Of a DNA stretch of 64,000 nt, positions 52,581 through 63,659 are shown one piece after another. Below the pieces are notes generated by a model. The model did no database searches. It worked only from the letters and a program-made list of their open reading frames with translations, and had not been told where the DNA came from. Position numbers and translations under genes: made by a program. The DNA comes from Eledone cirrhosa. Lineage: Eukaryota. The first letter of the stretch is position 1, and each line of letters opens with the position of its first letter. The stretch covers positions 95,869-159,868 of the forward strand of contig CAXHJY010000329.1 of the NCBI GenBank assembly GCA_964016885.1. Reading direction: 5' to 3'.

Positions 52581-52795
52581 TTCCTGTTTTACTTTGTTTC
52601 AATTCAACGAAAAAGTCAGTGCCAGATATCTTCCAACCATTTTCTCTTCTTCAATTCAACCAGAGAATTGATTACTGGAGCCAAACAAAAAAATAAATCC
52701 TCAAAGAATTCAATTCAATGATAACATTGTATATTATGGCACAACCTTGCAGGCTACTCCACTTCTTCTACTTCTAATAGACTTTCATTATCTTT

Positions 52796-52979
52796 CGGTG
52801 AATTGGCAGTATCGGTAGAGGGTCGGACGCCATGGTTTCACGCAAAGAGTTACGGCCCTTTATGATATGATTTCAAATCCCGCCGAGGTTAAATTTGCCT
52901 TTCATCCATACGGGGTTGATAAAATAAAGTACCAGTAATGTGCTGGATAATTGCTGGCCTTGTGCCAAACGTAGAAATA
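52796..52979 (+). mobile_element. tRNA-derived SINE (family A), near full length, with 9-bp TSD
   Basis: TGGCAGTATCGG A box, TTTCAAATCC degenerate B box and the shared central body. Flanked by the direct repeat ATTATCTTT at 52787-52795 and 52980-52988. Confidence 0.88.
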
Positions 52980-53094
52980 ATTATCTTTATTATGCTTGTC
53001 TTTGTCAACTAATACGCATCATGTAGCTCTGTCTGTATATTTTATTTTTCTTGCTTTATTTTACTGGGAGATACTTGCAAGGTATTGCTCAACT

Positions 53095-54236: not shown

Positions 54237-54287
54237 AGATTCCTGATGATTTCTAATGAATGAAACAGTTCTAGTCCTGTAGAATCT
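54237..54287 (+). ncRNA. Type I hammerhead ribozyme motif
   Basis: Stem I AGATTC/GAATCT. Core CTGATGA at 54243-54249. Stem II TTC-taat-GAA with U.U at its base. GAAA at 54262-54265. Stem III ACAG/CTGT. GUA cleavage triplet ending at 54281. Confidence 0.8.
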
Positions 54288-54299
54288 CTTCTATATTAA

Positions 54300-54459
<160 letters not shown>

Positions 54460-55579
54460 CGAAGGAATCGTGGTAAGAAACCAGATTGACATAAGCACCA
54501 AAGTACTCAATACTTAGGGTAGTAGAGTGGGTAATAGGAACAAGTATGACCCGGACGGCAGAGCTCGACGGCTATTTCTGGACTAAATAAGAATTTTTAG
54601 CCTGGTAAATAAATAACCGAACTTCTCAGGGGGTATTACTTTATATGGGAAAATAGTAATTGTCGAGAGGATTCGTCAAAAATTTGTTGTAAAGACAGAT
54701 CATGGCATTTGGTGGGAGGTAGGGTGGCTGAATTTGCCTGTAGAACAAAGAGGGAGTGGGGAAAACCCAGTGAAGCGTAGAAATTGAAATCTATACAGCA
54801 GATTCTAAGGATAGTGAATAAAAGGTCGAAAAAAGTGTACTGGAGAAGAGGGGGGGGGGGAGTTGGAAGAATTGGTAAATCGAAATGGAGTAAAAAAAAA
54901 ACAAAAACATTATAAAAATAAAGAAAGAAATATATAAAAACAATTTCTGGTTACTACATTTCTACAATCACCAAATCTCTCATTGGTATTGCTAAGCTAT
55001 AGAAAAGTTTAATAGGTGGAGAATGGGAAAAATACTAAATACAAGATTGTAGTGAAAGAATTTTATAAAGCCGGCTTTACAGGGAGTTTAACACCGCTGC
55101 TATAGATAGTTAGTAATCAGCCAATGCTATCTTACAATGACAGGTTAATAAGTTGAGAACAAAAATAGTAAAATACTATTACAAAAATATTAATACTAAT
55201 ACAAAAATACTAATACAAAAATACCACTAAGAAATTTAGAAACCATAGAAATGGAGCAGCAACCAAAAGGAAAAAAATTAGTGGGGTCTAACACATCTGC
55301 TATAAAAAGCGTAATCGGCCAATTCTATCTTAAAATTAGGGGGGAGGGAGTACTGAGGCTACAGAGGACCGCTGGGCTGCATGGGGATAGGCGAAAGGTG
55401 AAAAAAAGAGACGAGGAAGGAGATCTGGGGTGGAAGGACTAGGAAGAGATGGGGGAAGAAGGAAACATAGAGGAAAAGATAAAAAAGTTACGTCTACCTT
55501 TGTAAGCAGGGTTTACCCCTTACAAAATCGGCAAGTGGGGTATCAGCCCTTGTCTACCCCCCCCCCCCCCCGCCGGGGT

Positions 55580-56997
55580 CATTAAGGGGTTTGAGGGCGA
55601 GGTAAGTCCTACGCAATCTGTGTTTGCATGCGGTTACCAGTTCGTCTTTCTTATTTATGAGTTGGTCCTTCGAAAACAGCATTTGTAATGTTTCCTACCA
55701 GCATAAGTTACACGGACGGCGTCCTCACGTGTAAGAGTTAGCTCTGGACAGTAAGCTCCAAGTGAGATTGTAGGTTATGTTATTATCTTTGACGTCCCAG
55801 ATCTGGCCCGAAAGTGTAGTGGCATATCGCCGGGCCGGGTTTCGGAAAGTGTGTCGGTGTTGGTAGAGCCGGGTCTTGAAGTCACAAGCGGTTAATCCTA
55901 TATAAGCTTTGTTGGAGGTGTCCGTCCTCACGTTGCACTGGTAGATCACATTACGATCTCGGCATCTCTTGTTGAGGGGGCACATGGATCTATCAGGACA
56001 GTTACACCTCCTGGTCGGCTCTCCACTGGTGTCTAGATTATTTCTTCCATAGTGGTTAAGTTTTTTGTTGTTAGAGGAGACGATGTTTTGTGCGAAGTTA
56101 GGGGTGGTGCTGTAGGAGAGTTTGATTGTGTTTTTGTTGATTATATTGGGGTTGCGGTGTTGTAGTGAGAAGTGTTTTTCGAGGAGCCTAAAGAAGATTT
56201 TCCCGATAGGTGTTGTCGCCTAGGCATTGTGGGGAGGATTGAACCACGTTACGTTGCGTGAGCGGCGGTGTCGCCTGCTGGTTCCGCTAATGGAAGCTGG
56301 ATAATAGGATATTTCCTCCCTGAAGCCACTCCGCCTGAGGGCCTGGTTGTAATAAGGCTCATGTTCGTCGAATATCTGCTCATTAGCGGACAAACGAGAT
56401 ATGCGGGCGGAGATGTTTTTAACCAGGTTATTTGTGATGTTTCTAGGATCGTTCTATCGGCGGTGGATGTAATGCAGGTTGTCGTTTGGTGTCTTGTATG
56501 GGTAGTACAGATCATTTTCGAGGTTAACGGTGACGTCCAGGAAGTTTACTCGGGTTAGCGACGTTTGTAGGATTATTCTAAATTCCCAGTCCCTGAAGAA
56601 GCTGATTAGTTGTTTACGGACACGGTCTGTACTACTGGGGTTGTACCCTCTGAGGGTGAGGAGCCCATCATCGCGGTACAATCCACCGCCGAATGCAGGA
56701 AACATTTCGGTGAGTTTAAATAGTAGGAACAATCCTATAAGATCTGTGACCTCAGCCGAATCCGTTGCGCGCATACTGACGTCGAAGGAGGAGTCAGGAG
56801 CTCTCTTTATCCATTTGGAGTTGTCGAAAAGTAGGACTGTTTTCCTGGCGTGGATGATGATATTTCTTTCCTGGTCGGTGATGGGCGTGAGTGTTTCGGC
56901 AAAGTCCAAGGCGGCCGTAAGGAGCGGTAAGGTAATTGATGCATAGTAACTCTCTATGTCAAACTGGATGAATTTTGTGTCTCGTTTGTCCTCCATA
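55580..56997 (-). pseudogene. Disrupted PLE ORF: reverse transcriptase + GIY-YIG endonuclease
   Basis: RT motifs FDIESYYASI, GLYRDDGL and VNFLDVTVNL (ORF 56454-57062). Cys-rich linker and GIY-YIG NVIYQC...AYIGLTACDFKTRLYQH (ORF 55725-55985). C-terminal LINKKDELVTACKH near 55620-55665. Broken by frameshifts and stops. The first ~22 aa of the ORF-track protein come from the inverted repeat. Confidence 0.9.
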
Positions 56998-57356
56998 TTA
57001 GCAATACCAATGAGACATTTGGTGATTGTAGAAATGGAGTAGTAACCAGAAATTGTTTTCATATAATTATTACGTTATTTTTATAATGGTTTTTTTTTCT
57101 CCCTTTCGATTTACCTATACTTCCAACTCCCCCACCCTCCTCTTCTCCAGTACACCTTTTTCGACCTTTTATACTCTATTCTTAGAATCTGCTGTATAGA
57201 TTTCAATTTCAACGCTTCACTGGGTTTCCCCCACTCCCTCTTTGTTCTACCGGCAAGTTCGGCCATTCCTACCCCCCACCAAATGCCATAATCTGTCTTT
57301 ACAACAAATTTTTGACCAATCCTCTCGACAATAACTATCTTTCCATATAAGGTAAT

Positions 57357-57452
57357 ACCTCCTGAGAAGTTCGGCTATTTATTTACCAGGCTAAAAATCC
57401 TTATTTAGTCCAGAAATAGCCGTCGAAACGGCTTCAGCTCTGCCGTCGGGGT
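57357..57452 (+). ncRNA. Hammerhead-like motif with variant core (CUGAGAA) in the inverted terminal copy of PLE1
   Basis: Stem I ACCTC/GGGGT. CTGAGAA at 57362-57368. Long stem II CGGCTATTT/AAATAGCCG. GAAA at 57425-57428. Stem III ACGGC/GCCGT. GUC triplet ending at 57447. G8 of the consensus core is A. Confidence 0.55.
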
Positions 57453-57462
57453 GATAGTTGTT

Positions 57463-57497
<35 letters not shown>

Positions 57498-57684
57498 ATA
57501 CTTGGGGAGGGTCATATTTGTGTAATATTGCCAGAATTAATAACAGAACACACTCACTGTTTGGTTGGTTTTGGCTTTTCGCTTCTGTGTCCTTTATATC
57601 GGTAATCTAATTTATTCGGTCCTCAATGTTGCCATTGACTGACCAACGGTCAAAAATAATACAGATACAATATAGACACAAACA

Positions 57685-57742
57685 CATATATATAGTTTAT
57701 CAAACTTCTTTCGTTGCACATCTGCAACATCGTCAGTGGTGC
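57685..57742 (-). ncRNA. Degenerate hammerhead in the PLE2 3' UTR
   Basis: Minus strand: CTGACGA, then t-GTTGCA-gatg-TGCAAC, GAAA, gaa, GTTT-gat-AAAC, TA. Core and stem II are intact, there are 3 extra nt before stem III, and the 3' strand of stem I is not recognisable. Confidence 0.45.
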
Positions 57743-58001
57743 TATTGTTTCCTCCCGTTGCATTGTATTTTCTACGCCATCTTTATTTAGTCTGTTTATA
57801 TATTTATTTATTTGTTTATTTTATTTTGTCTTCTTTGCGCATGCGTTTGCGTGTGTGTATAGTGTTCTGTTTGATGTGTGTTTGTGATTGGGTGAGTGTG
57901 TATTGGTTAATGTATTCTATCTTTACTAGTGTGTGTTTATATGTGTTTGTCGTTATTGTGCTTGTGTATGTATTTATTTATTTATTTATCTATTTATTTA
58001 T

Positions 58002-60205
58002 TTATACTTCTCTTAGGTCAGTGTTGCTTGTTTGGGTGTTGTTGTTATTCCATTCATTCTTTCTGTTTAGCCTTGGCCTTCTAAGTTCTATTTCGCTGGC
58101 CTCTCTGATTTGCCTATCTGCTGGGTCATTTCTATCTTTAGATATTATTCTAACTTCTATGTTGTCTATGTTACCGTTGTGTTGTCTGGCATGTTCGTAT
58201 AGTACTGAACCGTTTTTTCGTCCTTTTATTTCCCCCCAGTGTTGGTCTATCCTTTCAACTATGCTACGAGCCGTCTCGCCTATGTATGTTATTGTCATGT
58301 TTCTGCAAGTATCCTTCGTACATCTTATGCTATAGACTACGTTTCTCGTTTTACAGTTTATTCGGGGGTTTACTCTACATATGATGCATTTCCTATTAGC
58401 ATAATGGGTTTTCTTAAAAGGGTAGGTTTTGCATATCAGGGATTTTATGGTGGTTCCTGGCTTTTCTACCACCTTAATCTTTAAGTGGGTCTTTCTCAGG
58501 GCCTTTCTACACTGGTTAGCTAATTTCCCTCCAGGAGTAGCGTCCACAAACATGACATTCTGGTATCTCTGTTTGTCGTACCATGAGGTGGCTTTCCCTA
58601 TCTTATGTCTAGCCCTTTCTAAGCTATTCCATTGGTTGTAGCCAGAGAACTGCATGCGGTTGATGAAGTGTTGGATGTGTCTTTCCATTTCTGTTGGGTC
58701 GCACATGCGGGACACGTTCTTCATCACTCGTACCAAATCTGCGATCAGAATATTAAACTTAGCACCACTGGACATTGCTGAGTTTTTGAGTATCAGGTAT
58801 TTGGAGGCGATGGGTTTAGCATAGTGTGAGTTGAGAATTTGGGCTCTCTCGTCTATAGTGTTAATCCAGAGTTCCGTGTCTAATACAGGTAGTCTATTGT
58901 TAGGGTGTTTGGAAGGGTAGTCGATAGTTACAGTTATACTCTGGTGTATGGAATTAGCTATCTGCTGGATGCTTTCCATTGTGCTACGTTCTAAATCAAA
59001 CTTGTTAGTGCTCTCTAGTCGGGATGTTCTTATAGCTATATTGATATCGTCTACGTAACGAGAGTACACGATGAGGTCTATGGAGCTCTCATTAAGGAGA
59101 TCTTTAAGTCTCCTTTCCCACCATACCATAAAAAGGTTGGCAACATCACCAGCTATGCTGACGCCAATGGCTGGTCCCTCATTTTGGGTGTAGATCTTCT
59201 CGTTGAACTTGAATATGTGGCCCTTTAGGGTAGTTTTGATACTAGCCCCTGTTGCATGTGCGACCATTTTTCTTACATGATCATTGTTTTTGGGGGTCCG
59301 TATAGCTTTGGTCCACCCAATCCACCTTCCCATGGGAGTCTTTTTAGCCATTGAGGTTATGGTGGGGCGTCTACCTCTTATGGGTCTACTGGGGCAGAAA
59401 CGTCAAAGGTCATGGCTGTCTAGGTAGTCAGTGTCGTAGATAAGTCTAAGTAGGAGGCCCAGTTCGTCTGTGTCGACGTCGCAGAACTCTACCTCACTCT
59501 CAATGATCATCTCCACACATTTTTCCACAGCAAAATCAATGTTAATGGATGGGTACAGTGATACCACATCCATGCTGCCTATTATGCAGTTGGATAGGTT
59601 TCTGTTTTTGTTGCACTCACTGATTCTGCTGAGGACGTCCTCTGTACTGTCTCATACATCTGGGGACATCTTGATTATGGGGCGTATAACCATTGAGAGG
59701 AAGTAGGAGATCCTGTACTTGCTAGCTATATTTGCTCCGCATACGGGTCTTGTTGGTGGTCCTGTTGTCGGGTCGGCGATTGTCTTGTGGTCTTTGCGGA
59801 GCCCATACAAGCGTGGTATGCCATTTTTATTAGACGCCTGGAAGTTGTTGGCAGTGCGTCTGCTTGGCCTTAGGATGGCGGTCCACATCATCATGTGAGC
59901 GTTGAGGATTTTCCCTCTCCCATCATGTGTTTGCTGTGCAATTTCGCTCGTGTTGGTGATGTGGGGTTGCATAGCCTTGATGTAGCTCGGCATGCTATCT
60001 TTTGACATCCTACCGGACTTATCCGTGTGTAGACATACTACCTCACCATCCCTTGTGCACTGCTTGAGGCTAACCAAGCCTTCTACACGTTTCCTCCCAA
60101 GTTGTTGGGCCTCTGGTCTGCTCTGTCCCTTAGTGTACCTGTCTACTATTTGTCTAATCTTATTTCTAGCTATGGTGAACTGTGCCTCTGTCTCGTCATC
60201 TATTT
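58002..60205 (-). pseudogene. Disrupted PLE ORF: reverse transcriptase + GIY-YIG endonuclease
   Basis: PRLYGLRKDHK and RPVCGA (ORF 59652-60077). GSMDVVSLYPSI near 59545-59580. QNEGPAIG, YSRYVDD, LPVLD and NVVYSIRC...YIGETARSIVERIDQH...LNRKNE (ORF 58002-59351). Split by frameshifts and 5' truncated. Confidence 0.92.
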
Positions 60206-60470
60206 GTTGTGTCTATTTTGTATCTGTATTATTTTTGACCGTTGGTCAGTCAATGGCAACATTGAGGACCGAATAAATTAGATTACCGATATAAAGGACA
60301 CATAAAGCGAAAAGCGAAAACCAACCAAACACTGAGTGTGTTCTGTTATTAATTCTGGCAATATTACACAAATATGACCCCCCCCCCCCCCCCCCCAAGT
60401 ATAACAATATTTGTTTCGACACACAATTTCATATCAAAAACCTCGCAAAACTATATATATATATATATAT

Positions 60471-60596: not shown

Positions 60597-60773
60597 ATAC
60601 ATACATACATAATGTATGGAAAGCGAGGAGTGCAGTTTGAAAATTAAAATACAAATAGATGGCTTCGCCGTAAGATTTGACAAAGTAGGGTAGTCGATAA
60701 AAAACCCACTGAACGGGAAACCAATGTATATTAATCACAGATGTGTGCTGATACCCATTGTTTTCATTCAGTG

Positions 60774-60954
60774 GGTTTATACGCCCTGTTATTAGACTAT
60801 ATTATTGGCAGTATCGGTGGAGCGTCAGACACCATGCTTTGCAGCATGGAGTTATGGCTTTTTACGTTCTGAGTGCAAATCCCACCGAGGTTAACTTTGC
60901 CTTTCATCCTTACGGGGACGATAAAATCAAGTACCAGTAAAGCACTTGGGTATT
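60774..60954 (+). mobile_element. Single unamplified satellite-precursor copy: 5' flank + family A SINE (3' truncated)
   Basis: GGTTTATACGCCCTGTTATTAGACTATATTATTGGCAGTATCGGTGGAGCGTCAGACACCA (60774-60834) matches the monomer. It is followed by the same SINE body as at 51401 and preceded by non-satellite sequence. Confidence 0.92.
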
Positions 60955-60957
60955 TGC

Positions 60958-61003
60958 TAAGCTCTGATGATCACCAACAGTGTGAAACAGATTTGTCAGT
61001 TTA
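60958..61003 (+). ncRNA. Type I minimal hammerhead ribozyme (retrozyme A copy 1)
   Basis: TAAGCT-CTGATGA-tCACcaacaGTGt-GAAA-CAgattT-GTC-AGTTTA. Predicted cleavage after 60997. Confidence 0.8.
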
Positions 61004-61269
61004 TCCCCTTTGTTTGTTGAAAAAAGAAGTGACACAGTCACTGCTTTAAAACAATAGCGGAAGGTCTTCAAAATGCTTTTAATTAAGCATACAGTGTATT
61101 GCCAAATACACTATATATACATTCATATATATATCGCTATTTCAGAGCACCAATCCTAATTTTCAATTTTTGCTGGACCGGCAATTGCTCTGTATAATCA
61201 GTTCCTGAATATTACTGGCATTCTATCAGAATCCAGCATCTATAATTTTCAACAAACATCGGCGAGTGC

Positions 61270-61315
61270 TAAGCTCTGATGATCACCAACGGTGTGAAAC
61301 AGATCTGTCAGCTTA
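61270..61315 (+). ncRNA. Type I minimal hammerhead ribozyme (retrozyme A copy 2)
   Basis: TAAGCT-CTGATGA-tCACCaacGGTGt-GAAA-CAGATCT-GTC-AGCTTA. Perfect 6-bp stem I and palindromic stem III ACAGATCTGT. Predicted cleavage after 61309. Confidence 0.88.
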
Positions 61316-61595
61316 TCTCCCTTTGTTTGTTGAAAAAAGAAGTAAGTGACATAGTTACTACTTTAAATTAATAGCGCAAGGTCTTCAAAATGTTTTTAAT
61401 TAAGCATACAGTATACTGCCAAATATACTGTACATATATTCATGTATACATCTCTATTTCAGAGCACCAATCCTAATATATATATATATGAAAAGAGTGA
61501 GGTCCCCCACCGGCTGAGCTCCGGCCGTTTCGACAGCTAGATTGAATATTCTGGTGCGTTATGGTGCACTTGGTATCTCACCACACTCTCTTTGT

Positions 61596-61627
<32 letters not shown>

Positions 61628-62092
61628 AATACAAATGTTTCTGTAGAAAACGGATTGATCTGTCAGGGATTTCAATACTAGTAACTTGTAGCGATGTAAC
61701 CACTACCAGGCTAGTCGATATATCGATCTCTCACGATCAATCCGCTGAAACGATCGTAAAACCATGGACTAATTACCTACCTGACTATTTGTATATATAT
61801 ATATATATATATATATACCCCACTTTCAATAAGCAAGAACCTAATACCTTTCGTAACTTTTAATCATCTGGTGCTGTTATTTACTTTCCTATATATGTAT
61901 ATTATATACATATATATAAACGAAAAAAGAAAATTTCGCTCTACATGGCTCAATACAATAAATGTAATCTGAGTTTTTCGAATATTAATAATAAGATTCG
62001 ATTCGTTTGCAATTATGCAAACAAGCCTCAATTTTATAGCCATGTCAGTAGAATAAATCCTTCATTATTGCTCTTGTGTTGCCATGTGAACA

Positions 62093-62142
62093 GAACTGCA
62101 GACACTAATGTTTCTGTGTATCACCCTTCATCAGTACAGCTC
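62093..62142 (-). ncRNA. Type I hammerhead ribozyme (retrozyme B, inverted copy)
   Basis: Minus strand: GAGCTGTA-CTGATGA-aGGGTgatACACa-GAAA-CAttagT-GTC-TGCAGTTC. One mismatch in stem II. Confidence 0.78.
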
Positions 62143-62207
62143 ACTTGTGATTCCCAGAAACATCAGTGTCTGCACTTCTGTTCACATGCCAACACAAGAG
62201 CAATAAT

Positions 62208-62381
62208 TGTTTCTACGTTAGGCACAAGGCCAGCAATTACCCAGTGTATTACTGGTACGTCAGGATGAAAGGCAAAGTTAACCTCGGCGGGATTTGAACT
62301 CAAAATGGCAAGGGCCGTAACTCTATGCGTCAAAACATGGCATCCGACACTCTACCAATACTGCCAATCCACCGCCAGATT
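62208..62381 (-). mobile_element. Family A SINE inserted in retrozyme B, 14-bp TSD
   Basis: Minus strand has A box TGGCAGTATTGG, B box GTTCAAATCC and the shared body with an internal deletion. TSD ACAAGAGCAATAAT at 62194-62207 and 62382-62395. The empty site is visible in the sister copies (~62065-62078 inverted, ~62822-62835). Confidence 0.93.
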
Positions 62382-62591
62382 ACAAGAGCAATAATGAAGG
62401 GTTTATTCTACTGACATGGCTATAAAATTGAGGCTTGTTTGCATAATTGCAAACGAATCGAATGTTATTATTAATATTCGAAAAACTCAGATTACATTTA
62501 CTGTATTCAGCCATGTAGAGCGAAATTTTCTTTTTTATTTGAATTTGGCAAAGCCGGCTATTTATCGCTCGTATACAGGAAACTGAGACTG

Positions 62592-62690
62592 GCCAGTCTG
62601 CTGATATGCAAATCTGGCTGATCACTGGATCTGTTAATATGCAGATCTGACTGATCAGCCAGTGTGCTAATATGCAAATCAGGCCGATCA
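62592..62690 (+). repeat. 3 x 33-bp tandem repeat containing ATGCAAAT octamers
   Basis: Units at 62592-62624, 62625-62657 and 62658-62690, each ending GATCA. ATGCAAAT at 62606 and 62672, ATGCAGAT at 62639. Confidence 0.8.
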
Positions 62691-62756
62691 GTCACTGTGG
62701 ATTTTTGAAAATAGCATATATTTTCACTAGCTCTGACAGTTTGGCAGGTGAACAGT

Positions 62757-62806
62757 GAGCTGTACTGACGAAGGGTGATACCCAGAAACATTAGTGTCTG
62801 CAGTTC
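62757..62806 (+). ncRNA. Type I hammerhead ribozyme (retrozyme B, downstream copy)
   Basis: GAGCTGTA-CTGACGA-aGGGTgatACCCa-GAAA-CAttagT-GTC-TGCAGTTC. 8-bp stem I with two G.U pairs and a 4-bp stem II. Predicted cleavage after 62798. Confidence 0.87.
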
Positions 62807-62938
62807 TGTTCACATGCCAACACAAGAGCAAGAATGAAGGGTTCATTCTACTGACATGGCTATAAAATTGAGGGTTGTTTGCATAATTGCAAACGAATCG
62901 AATGTTAGAACTAATATTCGAAAAACTCAGATTACATT

Positions 62939-63020
<82 letters not shown>
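62939..63020. repeat. (TA)n/(TG)n compound microsatellite
   Basis: Seen directly. Confidence 0.95.
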
Positions 63021-63659
63021 CTATTACCAAAATAATTATTCAGAAAAAATAATTACACCATATGTAGCTCAAGGATACGGTGTCTGTGCTGTCATTTCAG
63101 TAAATGACCAAATAAATATAAATAATTTTGATTGGTTGATAACATTGGGGCTAGTAGTTACAGCAGTACTAATTAATAACAAAAACAACAACAACATTTA
63201 TTTATTACTAAACTCAATGTAGTAATTAATAAATTGTCATCACTGATGCCTCAACGTTGAACGCCCCAGCAAAATGACTAATTTCCGATACCACTTTACG
63301 ATAAAATAAAGTTAAAGAAAAACAAAACAAAAAAAAAAACACCTGTGGCTCAACTAATCACGCGAAGATGGCCTCTAACTATCACTAGGATTCAAGATCC
63401 ATACACCAATTATTTTTATGCTCACCGCAAGAAACATAAAATCAGAAAATTACCGGATATATATCTGTAGAAATTCTGTAAAGATTCTTATCACTGGTAT
63501 TTATAAAACATTTCTATTTATCGGTATGCATTGTGCATATAGATGACTTTAACATATGCGAATCATTAAAAAACTTTGATGACACGGGTTCACTTGTAAC
63601 ATATTAAATATGGAAAGAATCTTGAATGGTGCTCTATTGGTTTAGACGATGAGTGTTCA

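Follow-up and report, generated by a model that had tools for sequence, protein, structure and literature searches.

The insertion and its surroundings

The window analysed here (64,000 nucleotides of Eledone cirrhosa DNA) consists of a satellite of 51 kb and, after it, TA tracts densely filled with repeats. The satellite (1-51398, 756 copies of a 68-bp unit with 95% matches) runs directly into a SINE-like copy and has 61 bp in common with 60774-60834; it likely arose from the head of the SINE-like repeat plus flanking sequence. Two broken coding Penelope-like elements (PLEs) are located further on, both with 5'-truncated bodies on the minus strand and an inverted copy of the 3' end. PLE1 (54459-57467; Hydra-like, with a CxCX5C linker) has its inverted 3'-end pair at 54534-54995/56998-57467, its long end with a tail of about 80 nt on the left and its short end on the right. 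PLE2 (57490-60451; Neptune-like) has the corresponding pair at 57490-57691/60198-60410, its short end on the left, a tail of about 43 nt on the right and a hammerhead-like core at 57736-57709. Both clade labels were assigned by comparison with motifs given in PMC8557442 and not from a tree; a Pfam search with the six PLE frames of the window yielded only a weak RVT_1 match (E 0.005). An isolated CUGAUGA...GAAA motif was observed at 54243-54265, outside the PLE1 arm.

The region 61923-62940 represents a single insertion of a hammerhead unit that is 440 nt long and has no ORF. Both of its outer ends enter TA tracts, a TA-rich tract at the left (61890-61922) and a TA/TG tract at the right (62941-63020), which are likely target sites. 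Positions within the unit are numbered from the first base after GTC (u1 = 62799). The inverted arm (61923-62145, minus strand by alignment, u396-u178) ends at the long end; its outermost 36 nt (61923-61958, minus strand, u143-178) form a tail present at this outer end only, in agreement with the family rule described below, and the plus arm is without a tail. A single extra T (62146) marks the head-to-head junction, after which the direct arm of 1.4 units begins at 62147 inside helix II, without CUGAnGA; its 5' part (62147-62207, plus strand, u417-u37) contains GUC at 62168-62170. It is interrupted by a later SINE-like insertion on the minus strand (62208-62381, 78% like 52790-52984) flanked by a perfect 14-bp target site duplication (TSD), ACAAGAGCAATAAT, at 62194-62207 and 62382-62395. 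This insert is presumably a SINE, judging from its anatomy; no tRNA was detected in it by ARAGORN. One complete natural unit follows (62382-62821, plus strand, 38.9% GC, longest sense ATG frame 56 codons), which includes three 33-bp internal repeats with a long predicted hairpin (62592-62691, plus strand) and a complete type I hammerhead motif (62748-62813, plus strand, with CUGACGA at 62765-71, GAAA at 62785-88 and a predicted cut after 62798). The remainder of the direct arm (62822-62940, plus strand) extends to the short end at u142. The minus arm is 94% identical to the plus copy at 62754-62941 and 97% to 62382-62536.

The GTC triplets of the plus strand (62168-70 and 62796-98) are 628 bp apart, and because this spacing includes the insert and one TSD (188 bp in total), the unit is 440 nt long; it folds at a z of -6.4 relative to shuffles. 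An earlier note on this DNA had given the same spacing and unit length, and the triplet positions and TSD copies agree with it. Its description of an inverted copy joined to a plus copy truncated in stem II at 62147 is confirmed by the arm alignments and the junction T, and that of a second plus copy with a complete hammerhead by the presence of the core and all three helices. Regarding the hammerhead assigned to the minus strand (62087-62145), the core (CUGAUGA 62134-62128, GUC 62103-62101) is present, whereas helix II has one mismatch (about 62117) and the distal extension of helix I is absent. The architecture had also been called the same as that of the two coding PLEs; the inverted 3' copy and the 5' truncation are indeed shared, but the tail at one end had been overlooked.

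The hammerhead family in the genome

The hammerhead at 62748-62813 has a type I core (CUGAnGA, GAAA, GUC), an interrupted helix I of 15 bp, a helix II of 4 bp that includes a G-C base pair and has one additional A on either side, and a helix III of 3 bp; ten helix III bases (62788-62797) are self-complementary (-8.8 kcal/mol as a duplex). PLE-type hammerheads acting as dimers have been described with a palindromic helix III and an additional base following A9 (PMC4209133). The active fold lies 3.2 kcal/mol above the predicted minimum, and the base of helix II is atypical. No Rfam hammerhead family was found at the gathering score in the whole window or at E<=10 in 60700-63100, so the ribozyme call draws on motif and fold; the Rfam miRNA hits at 60700-63100 were rejected as hairpin or TA artefacts. 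Among 140 copies the core columns were 93-99% conserved, and the four common variants preserve pairing or fall in loop II. The cores are thus not degenerate, in line with the earlier note, and the 440-nt unit is predicted to carry a self-cutting hammerhead.

A diagnostic 23-mer near the 3' end of the unit yielded 4,942 exact matches in the genome (G000), and its reversed control yielded none. The first 100 matches along contig C1 corresponded to 78 loci, reduced to 77 by removal of one near-identical duplicate; this position sample comprised 46 head-to-head loci, no tail-to-tail loci, 29 loci of a single orientation and two others. Arms ranged from about 30 to 820 nt (the longest 823 nt) with variable inner junctions, which showed overlaps in 34 of the 46 head-to-head loci (raw count). 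TA tracts were present at both ends in 33 and at one end at least in 42 of these 46 loci (raw counts), and TSDs, which in non-LTR retrozymes exceed 4 bp when present, are unreadable in the family, its ends lying in TA tracts.

Two exact cores one unit apart were found at 35 places genome-wide. Arrays of three or more units were not found, the 35 core pairs never overlapping into trimers, and most copies are shorter than a two-hammerhead tandem. In a tblastn comparison with the six PLE frames of the window, none of 106 loci had an RT/EN frame colinear upstream of the unit; PLE fragments were located within about 1.5 kb in 18 of them, in mixed orientation. These results bear out the view that the unit occurs as ORF-less tandems and is not always joined to an RT ORF.

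Several peculiarities were observed among the copies. At one locus (L002:1-2060) the long end of the element abuts a Hydra-like PLE fragment without a TA spacer, a single case which is possibly a template switch between element RNA and PLE RNA. Four loci (L031, L032, L086, L110) belong to a subfamily that has diverged further and whose sequence past u165 differs. A SINE-like repeat was secondarily inserted at u108-126 in 16 of the 77 loci, a hot spot coinciding with an AATAAT/ATTATT stretch. A candidate master array at G000:C3:17.748-17.755 Mb proved to be a duplicated 2-kb block.

Ends, junctions and templates of the insertions

The outer ends of the family cluster in two zones, u134-150 (mostly u142) and u160-190, the tail being about 36 nt long. 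One short and one long end were observed in 39 of the 41 classifiable head-to-head loci (binomial p 4e-10 versus independent choice), the other five of the 46 having one end outside both zones. Three further samples, selected for top score, for long arms or for a start at the cut site, yielded 16/17, 9/9 and 12/12, which brings the total of the four samples to 76/79 (loci L106 and L107 in the tail count are probably one duplicated event). The same rule is obeyed by the insertion at 61923-62940, by both coding PLEs of the window and, in the Neptune-like family of PLE2, by six of the seven inverted pairs among 30 loci.

A tail of 30-40 bp at one end, an inverted 5'-truncated copy and a bias towards (TA)n are described as hallmarks of PLEs (PMC8557442, PMC3846280). 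Purified PLE protein is reported to cut and extend both target strands in vitro and to begin synthesis at two positions inside the RNA, both located downstream of the hammerhead and delimiting the tail (PMC11167929). The scar in the ORF-less copies is best read as this PLE-specific tail. Since the insertion scars match those of the neighbouring PLEs, PLE enzymes likely copy the 440-nt unit. Mobilisation by a Penelope-type RT/endonuclease, proposed in the earlier note, is supported by the tail rule (76/79), the head-to-head arrangement (46/77) and the TA ends, and the one-end tail rule makes the PLE link stronger than that note knew.

It is unlikely that the unit is the pseudo-LTR of an unseen autonomous PLE, with the copies as 5'-truncated cis products. 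The unit has all PLE end signatures, L002 adjoins a PLE fragment and the comparison covered only three PLE families, all of which would suit such an origin. However, long arms continue from u181-440 directly into u180 of the lap before, no ORF intervening, two exact cores stand one unit apart at 35 places, and the 106 loci gave no colinear upstream RT/EN frame, the PLE fragments near 18 of them lying in mixed orientation.

LINEs, too, show truncated 5' ends, overlaps at junctions and AT-rich targets, and to that extent the unit could pass for a SINE-like element spread by a LINE, its inversion being a product of twin priming. Twin priming inverts a 5' segment from the interior of the element and makes no second copy of the 3' end, whereas in the 440-nt family the two outer ends are both 3' ends and fall in two fixed zones in 76 of 79 cases; moreover, they are positioned 142-180 nt beyond the cut site and carry no poly(A) or repeat tail, which makes a LINE origin very improbable.

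Regarding the inner ends, 17 of 90 arms terminate at u-2..+9, that is 0.027 per base versus 0.0026 in the flanking stretches, or about ten times as many (the edges of this bin were set after seeing the data, the site itself beforehand). Exact starts genome-wide, defined as copies whose two upstream bases both mismatch, numbered 3 at u436, 8 at u439, 43 at u1, 24 at u4 and 19 at u49 (raw counts). The peak at u1 is only about 2-fold above the downstream controls u4/u49, and many u1 starts use one recurrent CATG microhomology, which partly favours the peak. The sharp drop in starts immediately before u1 is more in keeping with run-off from a 5' end cut by the ribozyme than with stalling near u15, where helix I has its base. 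Of 66 arms reaching the cut-site bin, 46 continue past it, and a circle or uncut multimer is therefore needed as template for these; the two laps within 26 long arms differ by 6.2%, versus 7.5% between loci, with which a circle and a tandem source are both compatible.

The two arms of the same insertion differ by 7.4%, versus 10.5% between insertions (29 pairs; none of 2000 permutations as low), and rare variants are common to both arms eight times where 1.2 are expected (48 pairs). Subfamily-diagnostic columns conflict between the arms in 27 of 187 comparisons, so that one RNA per insertion is not certain, and gene conversion could be an alternative source of the likeness. The untailed arm exceeds the tailed arm in length in 11 of 39 insertions; since the longer arm has no tail, the tailed arm is not a foldback copy of it. 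Shared variants, arm differences and tails are best explained by two coupled priming events.

These observations also bear on the proposal that only the first strand is made by a PLE and that the inverted arm results from foldback (self-priming) of the cDNA or from later DNA repair. Self-priming has been proposed for inverted PLE junctions (PMC3846280), and the variants common to both arms and the short palindromes at u1/u15 in some junctions would fit it. As a general explanation it has very little probability, given the 11 of 39 tailed arms that cannot derive from the longer untailed arm and given that generic repair would not fix the second end at a set RNA site, although foldback or repair may account for a subset of insertions. 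The least probable origin, a MITE of a TA-targeting DNA transposon with a chance hammerhead-like motif, is suggested by the long inverted arms and flanking TA at 61923-62940 and is refuted, as the earlier note had expected, by the variable architecture of the family, with arms of about 30 to 820 nt, variable junctions, a single orientation in 29 of 77 loci, ends that differ by the tail, direct partial tandems, and neither fixed terminal inverted repeats nor a uniform length.

Mobilisation and relation to known elements

The preferred reading, to which a probability of roughly 0.85 is given, is that of a 440-nt retrozyme mobilised in trans by an endonuclease-positive (EN+) PLE. Rare copies with two intact hammerheads would be transcribed and cut to linear 440-nt monomers, and ligation would turn part of these into circles. 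The PLE protein would bind the unit RNA and cut both strands of a (TA)n tract, and the broken ends would prime reverse transcription at two points of the RNA, about 142 nt and about 165-180 nt 3' of the cut site. With each end using one of these points, the observed pattern of one short and one tailed end would result. On cut linear RNA, synthesis would run off at the ribozyme cut site, and on a circle or uncut multimer it would read through, matching the observed stops and the arms of up to 1.9 units. The two cDNA 3' ends would then anneal by short homology and be filled in, resulting in a head-to-head palindrome that mimics a MITE. The specific detail that the ends of a TA break prime at two internal RNA sites is somewhat favoured rather than established.

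Non-LTR retrozymes of animals were defined by Cervera and de la Pena 2020 (PMC7229834), with examples of 350-390 bp in mussel and 330/350 bp in axolotl, and PLEs are named there as candidate mobilisers. Like these, the 440-nt family has a type I hammerhead in a low-GC non-coding repeat within the range of 150-450 bp (GC below 45-50%; here 440 nt and 38.9%), a short self-complementary helix III and coexisting PLEs. The hammerhead core and helices are present, sense frames do not exceed 56 codons, and head-to-tail tandems with at least two hammerheads occur at the 35 places mentioned. The family is thus best read as a non-LTR retrozyme, a kind of element already known. The animal retrozymes differ in forming arrays, whereas the 440-nt family consists mostly of dispersed partial tandems (longest arm 823 nt), and in that cleavage and circles have been demonstrated for them and are predicted for the 440-nt unit. 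Neither head-to-head inverted copies nor a one-end tail are described in the main text of PMC7229834, in which the word 'inverted' does not occur.

Vertebrate retrozymes have been argued to be non-autonomous PLE derivatives (bioRxiv 10.64898/2026.07.22.740005), and the conclusion that PLE machinery is used is common to both cases. The vertebrate case is built on co-occurrence and pLTR homology in Xenopus, with no junction or tail analysis in the methods, results and discussion of that preprint; the 440-nt unit, in contrast, has no detectable pLTR homology but strong junction evidence. Partial tandems, an inverted 5'-truncated copy, a 30-40 bp tail at one end, a (TA)n target and a hammerhead upstream of two internal start sites are shared with EN+ PLEs such as Neptune, Hydra, Poseidon and Naiad, as described in PMC8557442, PMC3846280 and PMC11167929. 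Unlike the autonomous EN+ PLEs, the unit has no RT or GIY-YIG ORF, and many copies stop at the cut site; for the anole PLE, hammerhead cleavage is reported as dispensable in vitro and uncut RNA is used (PMC11167929). Non-autonomous Chlamys PLEs such as MRC1 are likewise ORF-less and tandem in structure, with a PLE-type pseudo-LTR. According to PMC8557442 they generally resemble autonomous 3' ends and most are without canonical hammerheads, whereas the 440-nt unit has a hammerhead motif and matches no PLE end examined.

Full-text searches of the open literature yielded no paper with a title or abstract on tails, inverted junctions or cut-site stops in an ORF-less hammerhead family, and the word ribozyme is absent from the main text of the Octopus vulgaris repeat annotation (PMC13282606); elements like the 440-nt unit are easily mis-annotated as MITEs. 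PLE mobilisation of retrozymes has already been proposed in print, and the added value here is junction-level evidence in ORF-less copies. The spreading enzyme of animal retrozymes has so far been argued mainly from co-occurrence and pLTR homology or kinship, and thousands of ORF-less copies bearing a PLE-specific scar constitute evidence at the level of the junctions. The tail rule, the shared arm variants and the cut-site stops bear on the origin of PLE inverted copies and tails, and the stops also on whether the hammerhead cuts in vivo. The family offers a testable model of the PLE insertion step; its 440-nt RNA with mapped start sites and the intact candidate PLE proteins of the genome suit the existing in vitro assay.

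Uninterrupted PLE frames were found in the genome, with lengths of 784, 832 and up to 1217 codons. The unit showed no DNA similarity to 61 loci of three PLE families, among which a homologous 3' end of an autonomous partner was not found either, and terminal alignments with PLE1, PLE2, a third Hydra-like group and the 312-nt family described below remained at shuffle level. The 5' flanks of 40 single-orientation loci had no recurrent junction sequence, and in a set of 54 such loci the flanks showed no more than sporadic matches to PLE loci. In the Neptune-like family a hammerhead-like core precedes the short end by about 220 nt and the tail measures about 43 nt; by geometry this family is closer to the 440-nt unit than the Hydra-like family of the window is, which is given as a lead only.

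The Hydra-like family (54459-57467; G000:C1:437.20-437.21 Mb, L176, L177) has intact 784-codon frames in 3.5-kb tandems; its tail of 80 nt is double the length described, and downstream of the ORF no canonical hammerhead core was seen. The terminal 24-mer of the Neptune-like PLE2 occurs five times with a spacing of about 313 bp at G000:C1:34853600-34854883, a possible ORF-less tandem of the PLE2 pseudo-LTR.

A tentative extension of the retrozyme reading, somewhat more doubtful than probable, is that a single PLE dimer primes both ends of the TA break on one RNA, each subunit at its own start site, which would explain the inverted copy together with the tail; ribozyme-cut linear RNA and circles would both be germ-line templates, and the partner would read RNA shape over shared sequence. 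The recognition of shape is proposed within that extension because an unrelated hammerhead family appears to share the geometry. This second repeat (60955-61477) has a 312-nt unit with a palindromic helix III and 3,128 first-look candidates, and forms arrays of several units elsewhere; at several of 20 loci viewed by eye, its inverted arms end beyond the cut site, at distances of about 137 and 163-170 nt.
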